Source: Clostridia bacterium (lineage in GTDB: Bacteria > Bacillota > Clostridia > Oscillospirales > Acutalibacteraceae). Taken from it: 64,000 nt of DNA. A model generated the notes under the pieces. It was not told the DNA's origin. It did not search any database and saw only the letters and a program-made list of their open reading frames with translations. The position numbers were made by a program, and so were the translations under genes. The stretch covers positions 25,244-89,243 of the forward strand of contig JAUNAM010000001.1 of the NCBI GenBank assembly GCA_030527615.1. The letters run 5' to 3'. Of the stretch, positions 14,166 through 20,457 are shown in pieces; within the stretch, counting starts at the first letter, position 1; the number at the start of each line of letters is the position of its first letter.

Positions 14166-14543
14166 ATGGATAATGTAAATTTATTAAGCCCGTCGGTGCT
14201 TGCTTTTGTCGGCGATGCGGTTTACGGACTATTGGTGCGCACGCGACTTGCCGAAATAAACCGTTCGTCGGGCGATTTGCACGCGCTTTCGGTAAAGTAT
14301 GTAAGCGCCACCGCACAGGCTGAGGCGTTTTCGCTGATAGAGGGCGAGCTTTCCGAAAAAGAGCTGTCGATTTTTCGTCGTGGTCGTAATTTTCATACCG
14401 GCAACACACCAAAAAGTGCAACGGGTGGGCAATACCACACGGCAACAGGGCTTGAGTGTCTGTTTGGCTTTTTTCATTTGTCGGGGCAGACCGACCGTGA
14501 AAAGCAGCTTTTTGAAATTATTTGGAAAAACCAAACCGTTTAA
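14166..14543 (+). CDS. mrnC: Mini-ribonuclease III
   Basis: LAFVGDAVYGLLVR RNase III-like signature, about 125 aa, no dsRBD. Confidence 0.85.
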   Translation: MDNVNLLSPSVLAFVGDAVYGLLVRTRLAEINRSSGDLHALSVKYVSATAQAEAFSLIEGELSEKELSIFRRGRNFHTGNTPKSATGGQYHTATGLECLFGFFHLSGQTDREKQLFEIIWKNQTV

Positions 14544-14596
14544 AAGAATATAAATTAAAGCCTCCGTACAAAATAACTGTATGGAGGTTTTTTGTA

Positions 14597-15445
14597 ATGC
14601 AAAAACGCTATAAATTTTTGGTTGATATACTTTATTTTATTGTGGGCACCGCCGTTTACTCTGCGGCGGTTAATATGTTTTTGTCACCAAACGGCATTTC
14701 GCCGGGCGGTTTTACGGGCATTGCCGTGGTGGTAAATCACCTAATCGGCATACCCACCGGCACGGCGCTTTTTGCCTTTAATATACCGGTGCTGATTATC
14801 GGCTACAAAAAAATGGGTAGCCGTTTTGTGGTAAAAACCGCCTTTGTGACAATACTGTTGTCAACCGTGCTTAATATTACCGAAAGGGCGCTGCCGCATT
14901 TTAAAATTGACGGCATATTGGCATCAATGTTTGGCGGCATACTTCTTGGTGTGGGTCTAAGCCTTATACTGCTACGGGGTGCGACCACCGGCGGCATAGA
15001 TATTGTGGCAAAGCTTATAAACCGAAAAATCAGACACCTTAGTGTCGGCAAAATTATACTAATGGCAGACGGCGTAGTCATTGCACTAAACGCTCTGGTT
15101 TACAAAAACGCCCAAAGTGCGCTCTATTCGGTTGTGGCAATGTACGCTGCCACCCGTATGATGGACACCCTGCTCTACGGCGCCGACAGGGGTAAGATAA
15201 TTTATGTGATTACCGCCCACCCCGACGTGATTTGTCAAAAAATAAACCGTGATATTGGTCGCGGTGTCACACGCCTTGCTGCCGTGGGCGGCTACACGGG
15301 CGAAAGCCGCACCATGCTTATGTGCACCGTGCGCGTGCACGAGGCGGCAACCGTGCACGATGTAATAAAAGAGTGCGATAATAGCGCCTTTATAGTGGTG
15401 ACCGATGCGGGTGAAATAATAGGTGAAGGCTTTAAGCGTGATTAG
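14597..15445 (+). CDS. YitT-family membrane protein (DUF2179 C-terminal domain)
   Basis: Five to six TM helices with the GGTTGG(I/M)D motif, and a C-terminal DUF2179-like domain. RBS ggagg at 14584-14588 favours ATG 14597 over the longer ORF. Confidence 0.8.
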   Translation: MQKRYKFLVDILYFIVGTAVYSAAVNMFLSPNGISPGGFTGIAVVVNHLIGIPTGTALFAFNIPVLIIGYKKMGSRFVVKTAFVTILLSTVLNITERALPHFKIDGILASMFGGILLGVGLSLILLRGATTGGIDIVAKLINRKIRHLSVGKIILMADGVVIALNALVYKNAQSALYSVVAMYAATRMMDTLLYGADRGKIIYVITAHPDVICQKINRDIGRGVTRLAAVGGYTGESRTMLMCTVRVHEAATVHDVIKECDNSAFIVVTDAGEIIGEGFKRD

Positions 15446-15481
15446 CCGTAGGCAAACCACGCAGCGATATTTGCCTACGGC
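15445..15481. other. 12-bp perfect stem-loop directly after the YitT stop, with no T-tract
   Basis: gccgtaggcaaa, a 13-nt loop, then tttgcctacggc. Not a canonical intrinsic terminator. Confidence 0.5.
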
Positions 15482-15550
15482 AACCTAAACGTAAGCACAG
15501 ATTGTATCGCATTTGCACAGCAAATATATCGCAATATTAAAAATGGGAAC

Positions 15551-15632
15551 GGATTGCCACAACGCTAACGCGTTTCGCAATGACAACATTACTCGTCAGT
15601 CATTACGAGCCACGATAGTGGCGTGGTAATCC
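15551..15632. repeat. 82-bp composite of two head-to-head 34-nt hairpin modules (REP/BIME-like), copy upstream of the LRR gene
   Basis: GGATTGCCAC-aacgc-taac-gcgtt-TCGCAATGAC, a 14-nt linker, then GTCATTACGA-gccac-gata-gtggc-GTGGTAATCC. Same architecture as 19043-19124 but in the opposite orientation. Confidence 0.8.
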
Positions 15633-15700
15633 GTATTATTTGATTTTCATCGCAATGCGCCACCGCAATTATTCATTAAAACAGTCAAAATATATAATCA

Positions 15701-15729
15701 TTGAAATTTAAAATAAAATAGTGTATACT
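15701..15729 (+). promoter_or_regulatory. Putative sigma-A promoter upstream of the LRR gene
   Basis: TTGAAA at 15701-15706, a 17-nt spacer, then TATACT at 15724-15729. Confidence 0.4.
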
Positions 15730-15751
15730 AAAATCGGAGTTTGCGTTTTTT

Positions 15752-15781
15752 GTGCGTTCACTTCGGTGGGTGCACTTTTTT
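15752..15781 (+). terminator. Terminator-like UUCG-tetraloop hairpin plus T6 inside the LRR gene leader
   Basis: gtgcgttcac-ttcg-gtgggtgcac (10 pairs including 3 G-U) followed by tttttt. It lies between the predicted promoter and the RBS aaggaggg. Confidence 0.4.
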
Positions 15782-15823
15782 AATTTATACCAATAGGTCA
15801 ACAACAAGGAGGGTTTTATTAAA

Positions 15824-18800
15824 ATGAAAACAAAAAAATTATTGGCAATAATTTTAGCATTGGCTATTATAATCTGCACGCTGCCAATAGGTGCACTAAC
15901 AGCAGGTGCCGAAACTGCAACAAGCTATACCGGCAGTTGTGGTGAAAATTTAACATATTCATTTGATGAAGCAACTGGTACATTAACCATTACCGGCAGC
16001 GGTGATATGGCTGATTATGATTGGCGTGATGCCCCATGGTATTCATACCGTAGTTTGATTAAAGCGGTTGTTATATCTAACGGTGTAACAAGTATAGGCG
16101 ATAGGGCATTTAACGATTGCGATAGCCTTAATTCGATCACAATCCCCGACAGCGTAACAAGTATAGGTGATTATGCGTTTTATAAATGCACAAGCCTTAC
16201 CGAAATCACAATCCCCGACAGCGTAACAAGTATAGGCAGTTATGCGTTTGATGATAGCACAAGCCTTGAAACCGTAAATATAACCGACCTATCAGCTTGG
16301 TGTAATATAGATTTTGATGGTTATAGTTCAAACCCAATGTGTTGTGCTGATGACCTTTGTTTAAACGGTCAACCGATAACCGATTTAGTTATACCTAATG
16401 GTGTTACACAAATAAATGACAATGCATTTAACAATTGCGATAGCCTTAATTCAATCACAATCCCCGACAGTGTAACAAGTATAGGTGAGAGTGCGTTTTC
16501 TGGTTGCGATAGCCTTGCCGAAGTTACAATCGGCAACGGTGTAACAAGTATAGGCAGTTATGCGTTTTCTGGTTGCTATAGCCTTACCGAAATCACAATC
16601 CCCGACAGTGTAACAATTATAGGTTGGTATGCGTTTTCCGATTGTGATAGCCTTACCTCAATTACGATCCCCGACAGTGTAACAAGTATAAGTAGTTATG
16701 CGTTTCACGGTTGCACAAGCCTTACCGAAATTACAATTCCCAATAGTGTAACAAGTATAGGTGAGCGTGCGTTTTCTGATTGCAGTGGTTTGGAAAGTAT
16801 CGTTGTGCAAAGTGGTAATACGGTATATCGTTCTGAAGGTAATTGCCTTATAGAAACGGCAACTAAAACACTTATTTTCGGTTGCAAAAACAGCACAATA
16901 CCAAGTGATGGCAGCGTAACAAGCATAGGTAGTTATGCATTTGAAGGTTGCACAAGCCTTACCGAAATCACAATCCCCGATGGTGTTACTAGTATAGGTA
17001 GTTGTGCGTTTTATGGTACAGCCTATTACAATGATAGCAACAATTGGCAAAATGATGTTTTATACATAGGCAATCATTTAATAGATGCAAAAACTACAAT
17101 AAGCGATAGTTATGCTATAAAAGACGGCACAAAAACGATTGCAGATGGTGCGTTTTACTATTGCAAAATACTTACCTCAATCACAATCCCCGACGGCGTA
17201 ACAAGCATAGGTCATTATGCATTTTATAATTGCACAAGCCTTACTGAAATCATAATCCCATACGGTGTGACAAGAATAGGTGAGAGTGCGTTTGAGTATT
17301 GCACAAGTCTTAACGAAATCACAATCCCCGACAGTGTAACAAGTATAGGCGTGCGCGCGTTTTATCTTTGCACAAGCCTTAACTCAATCACAATCCCAGA
17401 CGGCGTAACAAGTATAGGCGATTATGCATTTGAAGATTGCACAAGCCTTACCGAAATCACAATCCCCGACAGCGTAACAAGCATAGGTAGAGAGGCGTTT
17501 TACGATTGCACAAGCCTTACCGAAATCACAATCCCTGACAGCGTAACAAGTATAGGTGAGTTTGCGTTTCGGAGTTGCACAAGCCTTACCGAAATCACAA
17601 TTCCTGACAGCGTAACAAGCATAGATGGTTATGCATTTTATAATACAGCATATTATAATGACGATAACAATTGGCAAAATGATATTTTATATATAAACAA
17701 TCATTTAATAGGTGCAAAAACTACAATAAGCGGCAATTATAGCATTAAAGACGGCACAAAAACGATTGCAAATTTTGCGTTTTACGATTGCACAAGCCTT
17801 GCCAAAGTTACAATCCCCGACAGCGCAACAAGCATAGGTATCGGTGCTTTTGGCAGTTGCACAAGCCTTACCTCAATCACAATCCCCGACAGTGTAACAA
17901 GCATAGGTGGCAGTGCGTTTCGGAGTTGCACAAGCCTTGCTGAGATCACAATCCCCGACAGTGTAACAACTATAGGTGAATGGGCGTTTTGCTATTGCAC
18001 AAGCCTCACCAAAATCACAATCCCCGATAGTGTAACAAGTATAGGCTACGATGCGTTTTCTTATTGCAATAACCTAACTCTTTGTGTTTACAAAGACTCT
18101 TACGCTCATCAATATGCCATAGAAAACGAAATACCATATACATTAATCGAAAAAATAACCGGCGAGTGGAAAAAACAAAACGACAGATGGTGGTACAGCT
18201 ACTCTGACGGCAGTTATGCCGTGGGTTGGCTTGAAATGGATGGCAAGCGCTACTGCTTTGATGATGCCGGTTGGATGCTTACCGGCTGGCAACAGCTTGG
18301 CGGCAAGTGGTATTATTTTAACGCTGACGGTGTAATGCAAAAGAATTGGCAAAAGATATCTAAAGTATGGTATTATCTTGATGATGACGGCACAATGAAA
18401 ACCGGTTGGCAAGAGATTGACGGTAGTTGGTATTACTTTAATGCAAGCGGCGCTATGCAAACAAATTGGGAAAAGGTCGGCAAAGTGTGGTACTATTTTG
18501 AGCCAAGCGGCGAAATGACCACCGATTGGCAAAAGATAAGCGGTACTTGGTACTATTTTAACCAAAACGGTGCTATGCAGACCGGCTGGGAGCAAATAGA
18601 AGAGATTTGGTATTACTTTGATAATAGCGGTGCTATGAAAACCGGTTGGTTAAAGACCGGCGGCAAATGGTATTACTTTAAATCAAGCGGTGCTATGAAA
18701 ACCGGTTGGTTAAAATCAGGCGGCGTATGGTACTACTTTGATAATAGCGGTAAAATGCTGGCTAACACATCAAAAACAATAGGTAATAAGGTATACCGTT

Positions 18801-18832
18801 TTAATGCAAGCGGTGCGTGCCTTAATCCGTAG
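15824..18832 (+). CDS. Secreted BspA-type leucine-rich-repeat protein with C-terminal cell-wall-binding (choline-binding-type) repeats
   Basis: Signal peptide MKTKKLLAIILALAIIICTLPIGALTAGA. More than 20 repeats of about 23 aa of the form ITIPDSVTSIGxxAFxxCTSLTE. About 11 repeats of the GWxxxxGxWYYFxxSGAMxT type at the C-terminus. Confidence 0.9.
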   Translation: MKTKKLLAIILALAIIICTLPIGALTAGAETATSYTGSCGENLTYSFDEATGTLTITGSGDMADYDWRDAPWYSYRSLIKAVVISNGVTSIGDRAFNDCDSLNSITIPDSVTSIGDYAFYKCTSLTEITIPDSVTSIGSYAFDDSTSLETVNITDLSAWCNIDFDGYSSNPMCCADDLCLNGQPITDLVIPNGVTQINDNAFNNCDSLNSITIPDSVTSIGESAFSGCDSLAEVTIGNGVTSIGSYAFSGCYSLTEITIPDSVTIIGWYAFSDCDSLTSITIPDSVTSISSYAFHGCTSLTEITIPNSVTSIGERAFSDCSGLESIVVQSGNTVYRSEGNCLIETATKTLIFGCKNSTIPSDGSVTSIGSYAFEGCTSLTEITIPDGVTSIGSCAFYGTAYYNDSNNWQNDVLYIGNHLIDAKTTISDSYAIKDGTKTIADGAFYYCKILTSITIPDGVTSIGHYAFYNCTSLTEIIIPYGVTRIGESAFEYCTSLNEITIPDSVTSIGVRAFYLCTSLNSITIPDGVTSIGDYAFEDCTSLTEITIPDSVTSIGREAFYDCTSLTEITIPDSVTSIGEFAFRSCTSLTEITIPDSVTSIDGYAFYNTAYYNDDNNWQNDILYINNHLIGAKTTISGNYSIKDGTKTIANFAFYDCTSLAKVTIPDSATSIGIGAFGSCTSLTSITIPDSVTSIGGSAFRSCTSLAEITIPDSVTTIGEWAFCYCTSLTKITIPDSVTSIGYDAFSYCNNLTLCVYKDSYAHQYAIENEIPYTLIEKITGEWKKQNDRWWYSYSDGSYAVGWLEMDGKRYCFDDAGWMLTGWQQLGGKWYYFNADGVMQKNWQKISKVWYYLDDDGTMKTGWQEIDGSWYYFNASGAMQTNWEKVGKVWYYFEPSGEMTTDWQKISGTWYYFNQNGAMQTGWEQIEEIWYYFDNSGAMKTGWLKTGGKWYYFKSSGAMKTGWLKSGGVWYYFDNSGKMLANTSKTIGNKVYRFNASGACLNP

Positions 18833-18834
18833 CA

Positions 18835-18866
18835 AAAAGTGGAGTTCGATTAGAACTCCACTTTTT
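18835..18866 (+). terminator. Rho-independent terminator of the LRR gene
   Basis: gtggagttc-gatta-gaactccac flanked by an A-run and a T5 run. Confidence 0.85.
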
Positions 18867-18867
18867 G

Positions 18868-18957
18868 AGTGATATTGCCTTACGGCAGTGATATTTGACT
18901 GACGTCAAGTGATATTGTGCTATCGCACAGTGATATTTTAAAGGCTTATGCCTTTAA
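18868..18957. repeat. Four AGTGATATT 9-mers alternating with four different short hairpins
   Basis: The 9-mers are at 18868, 18887, 18908 and 18929. The intervening palindromes are gcc-ttac-ggc, tgac-tgac-gtca, gtgc-tatc-gcac and ttaaaggc-ttat-gcctttaa. Confidence 0.85.
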
Positions 18958-18990
18958 AGTTTCGGTGTCGCGTTGCGACGGATATATAAA

Positions 18991-19011
18991 GTCGGCTTTG
19001 CCGACACATTA
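18991..19011. repeat. 21-bp direct repeat GTCGGCTTTGCCGACACATTA (left copy; right copy at 19646-19666)
   Basis: Two exact 21-bp copies bracket the 634-bp repeat-rich block. Each contains the hairpin gtcgg-ctttg-ccgac. Confidence 0.85.
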
Positions 19012-19132
19012 ATTATGCATTATGCATTGTGCATTAAAGAACGGATTACCACGAGGCAGCCGCCTCTCGTAATGACTGACGAAAAGTATTGTCATTGCGA
19101 AACACGATAGTGTTGTGGCAATCCGCCTCTTT
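19011..19132. repeat. About 120-bp repeat unit 1: heptamer run plus an 82-bp two-module composite (19043-19124) plus a GCCTCTT tail
   Basis: aattatgc attatgc attgtgc att, then GGATTACCAC-gaggc-agcc-gcctc-TCGTAATGAC, a 14-nt linker, then GTCATTGCGA-aacac-gata-gtgtt-GTGGCAATCC. Confidence 0.85.
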
Positions 19133-19194
19133 AATCTGTTATCTGCAAGCGTAGCGGTCTGATATCTGATTTGGTGTCGCGTTGCGACAGATGT

Positions 19195-19362
19195 AGGGTC
19201 TCTCTTTCCGTTAAAGCCGTTGGCTTTGCCACCTTTCTCGTCAGAGAAAGGCTGCCTCCCTCTGACGAGGGTGACTCCCCACAGTGTGGGGAGATGTCCG
19301 TAGGACAGAGGGGACGCGCTCCTGTCAGGAGGTGTCAGCGTTAGCTGACGGAGGGAGAGAGT
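19195..19362. other. Closed multi-hairpin domain: seven or eight consecutive short stem-loops enclosed by a purine/pyrimidine closing helix. Candidate structured RNA or DNA element
   Basis: Hairpins: aaagcc-gtt-ggcttt (19213-19227), cctttctc-gtca-gagaaagg (19232-19251), ccctc-tgac-gaggg (19258-19271), ctccccac-agt-gtggggag (19275-19293), tgtcc-gta-ggaca (19295-19307), ctcct-gtc-aggag (19319-19331) and gtcagc-gtta-gctgac (19334-19349). The flanks tctctctttcc (about 19199-19209) and ggagggagagag (19350-19361) can pair if G-U pairs are allowed. Confidence 0.45.
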
Positions 19363-19386
19363 TATTTAATGTGCAATCCGCCCCTT

Positions 19387-19630
19387 AATTATGCATTGTG
19401 CATTGTGAATTGTGCATTAAAGAACGGATTACTTCGTCACTACCGCTCCTCGTAATGACGATATAAAACGTCAGTCATTGCGAGCGAAGCGTGGCAATCC
19501 GCCTCTTAATTATGCATTGTGCATTGTGAATTGTGCATTAAAGAACGGATTACTTCGTCACTACCGTTCCTCGTAATGACGATATAAAACGTCAGTCACA
19601 GCACACCGCAGGCGTGGCAATCCGCCTCTT
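19387..19630. repeat. Two tandem repeat units of about 121-123 bp (units 2 and 3: 19387-19507 and 19508-19630)
   Basis: The copies are near-identical except in the second module. Unit 2 has GTCATTGCGA-gcgaagc-GTGGCAATCC and unit 3 has the degenerate GTCACAGCA-caccgcaggc-GTGGCAATCC. Each starts with aattatgcattgtgcattgtgaattgtgcatt. Confidence 0.9.
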
Positions 19631-19831
19631 GGTTTATTAATGTTCGTCGGCTTTGCCGACACATTATCTCAACTCTAAACTCTCAACTCTACTATCTAAA
19701 TCACAACATCTTGTGTGGTTGACATAATACTTTGCACAAGATAAATATTTTGCAAAAATTATTTGGTGCTATTGCACAAATTTAATTTTAAAACTTTGTG
19801 AAAATTATAAGAAATTTTTTTAAAAAAATGC

Positions 19832-19860
19832 TTGCATTTGTGGGACAGTTGTGTTATTAT
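19832..19860 (+). promoter_or_regulatory. Sigma-A promoter of the S10 ribosomal operon
   Basis: TTGCAT at 19832-19837, a 17-nt spacer, then TATTAT at 19855-19860 preceded by tgt, downstream of an A/T-rich UP-like tract. Confidence 0.55.
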
Positions 19861-20145
19861 CTTTAGGCACGCTGCGAAAATGCGGCGTAAATACATGCGT
19901 TGATGCAGGAGGTGGCTCGCTTTAAGCGAGGAAATTTCTGCGGAGTATGTCCGATTTTAAACCGGGCGAAAGAACTTGGAGACACTATTGGTTACTTGCG
20001 AAACCGACGGTGTCGCGACGATGCGAGTCGTTGCTCCGGAATTGCGTTAACCCCAGCAATTGCCGGTTTTATGTTGTGCTAAGTGGAAACACACGGCACG
20101 GTGTAAGTTTTGCCCGCCAACTAATTCAAGGAGGCGAAAGTTCAC
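19861..20145 (+). promoter_or_regulatory. Long GC-rich structured 5' leader of rpsJ, a probable S10-operon regulatory leader
   Basis: About 280 nt between the promoter and the rpsJ RBS (aaggaggcg), with many local stems such as gctcgc-tttaa-gcgagg and ccggcaattgc/gcaattgccgg. The small ORFs here lack an RBS. Confidence 0.45.
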
Positions 20146-20457
20146 ATGGCAGTGAAAGAAAAAATCCGAATTCGTATTAAAGGTTACGACCACGCACTTG
20201 TAGACCAGTCCGCTGAAAAGATAGTGGAAACCGCTAAACGTACAGGCGCTAGGGTTTCAGGTCCCGTACCGCTACCCACCGAAAAGGAAATCGTAACAAT
20301 TCTACGTGCTGTTCACAAATACAAGGACAGCCGTGAGCAATTCGAGATGAGAACCCACAAAAGGCTTATCGACGTAATCAGACCTTCAAACAAAACTGTT
20401 GAGGCTCTGACCGGTCTTGAGCTCCCCGCCGGTGTTGAAATCGAAATCAAGCTTTAA
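20146..20457 (+). CDS. rpsJ: 30S ribosomal protein S10
   Basis: [17 protein letters not shown]...THKRLIDV is canonical S10. Confidence 0.98.

Follow-up and report, generated by a model that had tools for sequence, protein, structure and literature searches.

Which kind of event places a single surface-protein gene between two oppositely oriented copies of the same palindromic element? This question is raised by a locus in a DNA stretch of 64,000 nucleotides (nt) from a Clostridia bacterium (GenBank assembly GCA_030527615.1, contig JAUNAM010000001.1, positions 25,244 to 89,243), hereafter the window, in which a BspA-type leucine-rich repeat (LRR) gene lies between the core gene for a YitT-family membrane protein and the S10 operon. 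The source genome (G000) has 1.52 Mb in 107 contigs with 40.4% GC. In an original prediction made from the sequence of the window alone, the two composite elements beside the LRR gene were likened to the terminal inverted repeats of a cassette flanked by miniature inverted-repeat transposable elements (MITEs), and the enclosed segment was proposed to be a mobilised or recombination-delimited accessory cassette. The analysis described here points to another origin. Probably, hairpin dimers of the type of repetitive extragenic palindromic (REP) sequences or bacterial interspersed mosaic elements (BIMEs) accumulated in a variable spacer, in part by local duplication, and the same spacer received one member of an LRR gene family equipped with its own leader. 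The locus would then amount to a variable spacer that holds an accessory surface-protein gene among REP/BIME-type repeats, and not to a new mobile cassette.

The elements themselves are real. A repeat search finds inverted repeat arms at 15550-15634 and 19041-19125, which are 85 nt long, 81% complementary and 3406 nt apart, and an inverted repeat of this length and identity is far beyond chance. The arms are 1–3 nt wider at each end than the predicted 82-bp composites, and they enclose, as proposed, a single open reading frame (ORF) of 1002 amino acids (aa) between the YitT gene and the S10 operon. Each composite consists of two modules of about 35 nt in inverted order, whose heads face each other across a 14-nt linker; the reported match of the two linkers at 10 of 14 positions after reverse complementing is also correct. 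The opposite orientation of the pair stands only in part. Global alignment gives 69 matches out of 85 for the inverted and 61 out of 85 for the direct arrangement, and composite 1, when compared with its own reverse complement, agrees at 60 of 85 positions. The inverted alignment is thus the best one, while the orientation call drawn from it is thin, as the prediction itself had warned. The two composites are also not the only ones of the locus, since two more (composites 3 and 4), oriented like composite 2, are found further to the right, so that the right side holds three. RNA folding predicts an outer stem with three hairpins for both composite 1 (-41.1 kcal/mol, z -7.1) and composite 2 (-40.4 kcal/mol, z -6.8). 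Composite 1 begins 105 nt past the YitT stop codon, and a U-rich run comes after it. A search of Rfam at a permissive threshold returned no match at the composites.

Composites 3 and 4 belong to two tandem units which are 98% identical over 105 nt at a spacing of 121 nt, and 93.4% identical over 137 nt. Elsewhere in the genome, at C67:1-123, the sequences corresponding to 19324-19372 and 19633-19697 are joined through a single short direct repeat without the tandem units, and the same short direct repeat bounds the two units in the window. To judge from these sequences, the two arrangements look like a filled and an empty site within one genome and are consistent with slippage or unequal crossing-over. 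A part of composite 2 of 45–55 nt (19077-19131 and 19087-19131, reaching 6 nt beyond the composite end) recurs with 100% identity on two other contigs, C11 (at its end) and C26.

The module that builds the composites forms a dispersed family. It starts with a GTC head, followed by a 5-bp lower stem (ATTRC/GYAAT), a variable inner stem-loop and a CCG tail. The exact pattern occurs 18 times in G000, always in intergenic regions, and seven of these copies are at the YitT-S10 locus. By using a profile built from the four composites, full composites were also found on C41 (two), C76 and C80, and partial ones on C11 (contig end), C26, C30, C40, C15 and others; altogether, the family is present at about 15 other intergenic sites of the genome. 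Neighbouring genes encode, among others, RNase J, a Gfo/Idh (GFO/IDH/MocA-family) oxidoreductase, a U32 peptidase, fucose isomerase, an LRR/choline-binding protein (C40) and several very large proteins without a Pfam match. Within the genus, modules are found in 21 of 101 genomes (G000 included) at 0 to 128 copies per genome, and the reversed pattern used as a control gives 0–1. A wider scan with one genome per species revealed at least 120 stretches with modules. Among the matches listed, most are from gut or rumen Oscillospiraceae and other Clostridia metagenome-assembled genomes (MAGs), and some are from other phyla; single matches in distant phyla need caution because about 330 chance matches are estimated for a collection of that size. 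Many of the scan matches have perfect inner stems, and one Acidobacteriaceae MAG carries four copies within 0.85 kb.

The inner part of the module varies from copy to copy and yet stays paired. Among 103 external modules, 93 inner sequences are distinct, and the mean best perfect inner stem is 5.2 bp, as compared with 2.9 bp in shuffles. Inner stems reach 9 bp, loops are 3–6 nt, and an internal loop separates the two tiers of the stem. The lower stem pairs in all of 121 modules, its variable pair being G-C in 115, A-T in six and mixed in none. In the external modules, GTC is preceded by T (71), C (27), G (three) or A (two), and in those of G000 by A (nine), T (seven) or C (two); the GTC head itself is invariant by construction of the search pattern. 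In G000, four dimers are head-to-head, three of them at the locus with the 14-nt spacer, and one is tail-to-tail, while tail-to-tail dimers dominate in a sample from other genomes. A full-text literature search for the module 11-mer returned unrelated primer lists only.

How the LRR gene relates to the site was examined in relatives, the close ones being reached via a homology search. YitT orthologues in these genomes are 70–93% identical at the aa level and the upstream synteny is kept; the genes upstream of YitT in the window are DUF2007, Obg and a small RNase III-family gene, and five relatives share the order Obg, mini-RNase III and YitT. The original prediction had asked whether YitT is directly followed by the S10 promoter where the LRR gene is absent. 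The promoter comes 459 nt after YitT in G008 (YitT 70% identical) and 421 nt after it in L032 (81%) with nothing between, and 630 nt after it in L031 (85%) with no gene between. In G018 and G003 (74 and 70%), a different small cassette with a helix-turn-helix (HTH_3) gene precedes the promoter. The LRR gene is therefore accessory at the YitT-S10 site. An S10 protein look-up found ten distant lineages with other upstream genes; it shows no more than that the junction upstream of S10, and the gene there, varies widely between lineages.

The breakpoints of this presence/absence difference, which had been expected at the composites, lie elsewhere. Homology to the empty sites stops at 15435-15436 and resumes at 19663 in L031 and at 19735-19755 in L032, G008, G003 and G018. 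What is missing from L031, L032 and G008 is the segment from 15446 to 19662-19734, not that from 15550 to 19125, and the breakpoints are thus about 105 nt to the left of composite 1 and 538–630 nt to the right of composite 2. In L031, a solo module is found within the empty site itself, together with another small hairpin.

Closest to the window are L029 and L030 (YitT 93 and 91% identical, core DNA about 89%). Both keep most of composite 1 and the leader junction (15480-15565 and 15579-15733) at 90–93.5% identity, with 93.5% at the junction. The 15480-15565 part, which extends into the spacer before composite 1, is 89.5–90% identical to them, while L031/L032 homology has already ended at 15435-15436. 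Both also have an extra 343 nt of repeats inside the left module of composite 1 and, behind the leader, a 157-aa lipoprotein-like ORF without a homologue in G000. In L030, a second partial copy of the promoter segment follows, and then a 606-aa LRR gene whose product is 51% identical to that in the window; the flanking proteins are 91–97% identical. From this arrangement, the presence or absence of the 157-aa ORF between the window and L030 is located between the promoter copies (15691-15729) and not at the composites. A cassette with the composites as its terminal inverted repeats, whether MITE-flanked or recombination-delimited, is not supported at this locus; the left composite is kept in these relatives with another gene behind it.

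The base composition of the LRR gene, by which a foreign origin might have been recognised, proved uninformative. Its GC content of 41.0% ranks at the 36th percentile among long ORFs and those of YitT and Obg at the 98th–99th, so that GC gives no foreign signal for the LRR gene and the flanking core genes are the unusually GC-rich ones. Its codon-usage distance is 0.091 against a mean of 0.037, a high value that is expected of a repeat protein. The product has a signal peptide and C-terminal choline-binding repeats, and the gene family has matches at 10 or more further loci of G000.

From these data, the following history can be drawn. The 85-nt composites are head-to-head dimers of a REP-like module, non-coding, dispersed and patchily amplified, and closest to the CGTC-tagged REP superfamily. 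Besides this family and its distribution, the data show that the LRR gene is accessory, that breakpoints and composites do not coincide and that a RAYT link is lacking. The gap between YitT and the S10 promoter would be a variable spot in a small clade, which in the G000 lineage gained a member of the LRR family with its own conserved promoter-leader and terminator, and also a mosaic of short palindromes. The four composites would be part of this mosaic, and two would have arisen by tandem duplication on the spot. They would bracket the LRR gene because modules settle, or are tolerated, in spacers beside large secreted-protein genes; the opposite orientation of composites 1 and 2 would be incidental, and the two would not be the ends of a transposable unit. 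Modules may spread by an enzyme acting in trans or by recombination, and once in place may act as stable DNA or RNA hairpins, putatively as transcript 3′-end or insulator structures.

Several observations weigh against this history. In G000, 12 intergenic intervals bear modules and six of them adjoin an ORF of at least 680 aa, as compared with 175 of 1422 intervals overall, and the corresponding figures for fetched regions of another genome, G074, are 7 of 15 and 20 of 129. Three genes are bracketed on both sides: the LRR gene of the window, a gene on C41 whose product is a secreted protein of 1153 aa, and a G074 gene of the LRR_5-cohesin-dockerin type. On account of the enrichment and these bracketed genes, a role of the modules in the gain, loss or exchange of large genes is possible. 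In addition, an exact look-up of the YitT protein of the window gave no match, and a metagenome scan with it gave a single 71%-identical match on a 1.1-kb contig and no same-species comparison; the comparison covers other species only, the nearest with about 89% core DNA identity, at which recent events are unreadable. In both genomes, which are of two species, the repeats adjoin genes for large secreted proteins at a higher frequency than expected, about four times in G000 and three times in G074, with binomial estimates of about 0.002 and 0.004, respectively, to be read with the reservation that intervals flanking one gene are not independent. Or the enrichment may simply reflect the long, permissive spacers found beside accessory genes. 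In G074 (loci L188-L198), two of the large ORFs encode LRR_5-dockerin proteins, and one of these is flanked on both sides by repeats of about 125 nt, each with a module, in direct orientation. Bracketing is therefore recurrent, and inverted orientation is not.

If the modules served as short homologies or hairpin-prone break sites for the gain, loss and exchange of surface-protein genes, the bracketing would be a footprint of the arrival of the LRR gene. The enrichment and the three bracketed genes speak for this explanation, and so do several junctions close to composites. Positions 15634-15786 recur with 95% identity ahead of an LRR paralogue on C1, where there is no composite, and this homology starts within 3 nt of the right edge of composite 1. 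On C80, a 95.7% identical copy of the array that follows the LRR gene matches 18858-18927 (alignment to about 18930), and the match resumes at 19128-19160, 3 nt past the right edge of composite 2; as only about 55 unrelated nt lie between the matched segments, composite 2 and its neighbours are absent there. The single short direct repeat on C67, where the tandem composite units are missing, and the solo module in the empty site of L031 point in the same direction. Nevertheless, the comparison of relatives gives no indel with a module at each of its ends, the one readable rearrangement, that of the 157-aa ORF, lies between copies of the promoter segment, and the solo module of L031 is not derivable from the window arrangement by one crossover between like-oriented modules. 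The enrichment may also reflect no more than permissive spacers. We regard this explanation as unlikely. A broader form of it, in which a transposase-orphan lineage of CGTC-like REPs, possibly reaching beyond Clostridia, both marks leader-equipped surface-protein genes of this gut genus (those for LRR_5 and other large secreted proteins) and helps to shuffle them, so that bracketing would come from REP-guided exchange and not from passive accumulation, is more speculative still and has to be judged decidedly unlikely.

The site may also have received the LRR gene with an integrated mobile element that was brought by a site-specific recombinase and then decayed, the hairpin repeats being unrelated later settlers. 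At L030:14922-15305, the LRR gene is followed, on the opposite strand, by the 3′ end of an ORF that encodes a DUF4368 domain (E 8e-22). DUF4368 is a C-terminal domain typical of large serine recombinases, and because the contig ends inside this ORF, a mobile element may sit at the spot in L030. The different HTH cassette at the same spot in G018 and G003 and the variable gene upstream of S10 would also fit. In the window, however, there is no recombinase ORF between Obg and the S10 operon and no phage gene, conjugation gene or attachment-site repeat between YitT and S10, the GC content of the LRR gene is typical of the genome, and its leader is common to chromosomal paralogues. Such an origin seems improbable. 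An invertible segment between the composites was considered as well and rejected, since the LRR gene of L030 points the same way and there is no invertase.

The cassette of the original prediction, with composites 1 and 2 as terminal inverted repeats and the whole unit moved by a transposase in trans, draws on the fact that the inverted repeat encloses exactly one gene together with its promoter and terminator, and that this gene is absent from the site in several relatives. Set against this are the advantage of only eight positions for the inverted over the direct alignment, breakpoints that fall outside the composites by 105 nt on the left and by 538 nt or more on the right, two composites beyond the supposed right end, the solo module in L031 and the direct repeats in G074. 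The 10 nt outside composites 1 and 2 contain no common direct repeat and no target-site duplication, and a second copy of the composite-LRR-composite unit was not found in G000. The 120 best-scoring database proteins are 34–51% identical to the LRR protein and include no close copy of it, although ranking by bit score favours longer repeat proteins and a closer copy could exist. No linked transposase was found among the Y1/RAYT families, to which the screen was confined. Taken together, a MITE-like or composite-transposon cassette is very improbable.

A transposase link was sought especially for REP-associated tyrosine transposases (RAYTs). G000 contains one RAYT-like gene at C85:791-1537 (NF047646, 81.9 bits against a cut-off of 80), in addition to an IS200-type gene. 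The RAYT-like gene (248 aa; C85:700-1740) is flanked on both sides by its own palindrome, which is unrelated to the modules, and the same palindrome surrounds the RAYT-like genes of G074 and G073. Modules are absent within about 1.5 kb of 14 Y1 transposase loci in six genomes (two of the loci belong to G000 and the others are 12 of 18 matches from five module-rich genomes). Of the 21 genomes with modules, 14 have RAYT-family matches, as do 45 of the 80 without modules, and the richest genome, with 128 modules, has none. A link of the modules to RAYTs was therefore rejected: the flanking REP is a different one, adjacency is missing and RAYT presence does not track the modules.

The features of the locus are collected in Table 1.

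Table 1. Features of the YitT-S10 locus, in coordinates of the window
Feature	Position	Strand	Remarks
YitT-family membrane protein gene, left core flank	14522-15445	+	PF02588, E 3.4e-58, and DUF2179
Spacer with small hairpins	15446-15549	.	Common to L029/L030, not to relatives without the LRR gene
Composite 1	15550-15634	+	Modules 15550-15584 (reversed, G type) and 15599-15633 (forward, A type), 14-nt linker
LRR gene promoter and leader	15635-15823	+	-35/-10 at 15701-15729; terminator-like UUCG hairpin element 15733-15786
BspA-type LRR surface protein gene, 1002 aa	15824-18832	+	LRR_5, E 5.6e-195
Perfect 15-bp hairpin past the LRR stop codon	18833-18867	+	100% complementary inverted repeat
Array in which a constant 9-mer alternates with small hairpins that differ	18868-18957	+	RF01706, sub-threshold
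21-nt hairpin repeat, copies 1 and 2	18991-19011, 19646-19666	+	100% identical
Composite 2	19041-19125	-	A-type module 19042-19076 (reversed) and G-type module 19091-19125 (forward)
GC-rich cluster of short hairpins	19195-19362	.	Repeated on C41 and C67
Two tandem 121-nt units, each with heptamer-rich motif and composite	19373-19630	-	Composite 3 at 19424-19502, composite 4 at 19545-19626
S10 operon promoter and leader	19663-20145	+	Kept in relatives, homology 84-94%; RF03136
rpsJ (S10), first gene of the S10 operon, right core flank	20146-20457	+	PF00338, E 4.9e-37

For the YitT gene, the database gene call begins later than the ORF in Table 1 and gives 282 aa. In the interval between Obg and YitT, a 125-aa ORF at 14166-14543 belongs to the Ribonuclease_3 family and is of the mini-RNase III type according to precomputed Pfam matches on its orthologues; its synteny is kept in all close relatives. 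On the other side, an Rfam search places the S10-Clostridia leader RF03136 at 19892-19969 with 45.1 bits. About 400 nt upstream of rpsJ (19735-20145) show 84–85% identity in species whose YitT is only 70–74% identical, and the conserved region of the S10 leader and promoter is thus much longer than the curated model.

The promoter-leader that belongs to the LRR gene family fills the 190 nt ahead of the ATG and contains a distinct element. Right after the -10 box, about 50 nt (15733-15786) comprise an invariant 5′ part, then a hairpin of 10 bp whose loop is UUCG, and a T run. The element is found at 81–95% nt identity in 46 of the 101 genus genomes (G000 included), with one to eight matches each, and core proteins in these genomes are only 50–75% identical. 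Its hairpin arms show compensatory changes and it has no Rfam match. At seven of eight loci looked at in other genomes an ORF lies downstream; five of the seven start 14–35 nt downstream and have a signal peptide or lipobox, while the other two start at 0 and 113 nt and have no clear signal peptide. The element is a candidate for a genus-wide leader or attenuator of secreted-protein genes. At the other end of the gene, the hairpin directly past the stop codon is likely to be the terminator.

The other non-coding DNA of the locus is likewise built of repeats, in a mosaic with at least five kinds of short palindromes. The array of 9-mers and hairpins overlaps a match to the Gut-1 RNA (RF01706) at 18848-18920, which has 37.4 bits against a gathering score of 50 (E 8e-5). 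The 21-nt hairpin is present in eight copies on seven contigs (up to two mismatches), and its second copy in the window ends where L031 homology resumes. A heptamer-rich motif with GCATTGT-like runs is located at 19012-19040, 19385-19425 and 19506-19546; it has 20 copies on 15 contigs of G000 (up to two mismatches), often near modules, and is also found at this locus, just past the YitT stop codon, in G018 and G003, relatives without the modules.

These modules document a CGTC-like REP family for gut Clostridia, which the paper that defined the superfamily does not list, and the inner stems of this family vary while the pairing is retained. Such repeats break assemblies and create false small ORFs in gut MAGs. 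BspA-type LRR proteins are candidate host-interaction proteins, and if the repeats take part in the turnover of their genes, this would bear on how gut commensals vary their surface.

Among the systems to which the locus can be compared, a composite transposon flanked by MITEs or insertion sequences shares with it the short inverted copies around one accessory gene, but no target-site duplication, no exact empty site in the other species compared, no second copy of the unit and, in the screen of Y1/RAYT families, no linked transposase was found, and further composites are located beyond the supposed right end. Integron cassettes with attC sites resemble the locus in their imperfect palindromes with conserved ends and a variable middle beside single accessory genes. 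Unlike in integrons, no integrase gene is present at or near the locus (attC core sites were not searched for), and the elements occur on both sides of a gene and beside housekeeping genes. Similarity is greater to the BIMEs of Escherichia coli and the REP doublets forming hairpins (REPINs) of Pseudomonas (PMC2817692, PMC3116915, PMC3337134): two inverted units with a short spacer, intergenic dispersal, clusters, tandem arrays and hairpin potential are common to both. The GTAG head of REPINs and BIMEs is absent, however, and the module has a GTC head followed by ATT. The REPIN/RAYT partnership also differs, in that the RAYT-like gene of G000 is flanked by another repeat and RAYT presence does not track the modules.

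The nearest counterpart is the superfamily of CGTC REPs, described from hosts in five phyla, Bacillota not among them (Di Nocera, De Gregorio and Rocco 2013; PMC3733652), and including dRS3 of Neisseria and RPE-4 and RPE-6 of Rickettsia. These REPs have an unpaired CGTC head, often TGTC, with CCTC also allowed, stems of 8–9 bp starting with A-T pairs, loops of 4–5 nt and a 3-nt tail near CCA. They are mostly head-to-head dimers, often heterodimers possibly folding as one structure, their copy numbers are uneven among relatives, and they “apparently lack a dedicated transposase” (PMC3733652). The modules differ from them in the two-tier stem, with 5 bp below, an internal loop and an inner stem of 5–9 bp varying per copy, in the tail, which is CCG (mostly followed by T) and not CCA, in the base before GTC, which in G000 is A or T more often than C, and in their occurrence in a genus of Clostridia (Bacillota). 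Because the stem and loop dimensions do not fit, the modules may lie outside the superfamily in the strict sense. As to the head, T or C precedes GTC in 98 of the 103 external modules, GTC itself being fixed by the search pattern. Shared with the superfamily are the A-T pairs at the start of the stem and a 3-nt tail beginning with CC. The composites at the locus are head-to-head heterodimers predicted to fold as one structure, three of the four with the 14-nt spacer. Furthermore, modules lie between genes of the same direction or convergent genes, their copy number is uneven, and no link to a transposase is seen. The modules are therefore taken to work like the dimers of CGTC REPs, and they are probably related to them.

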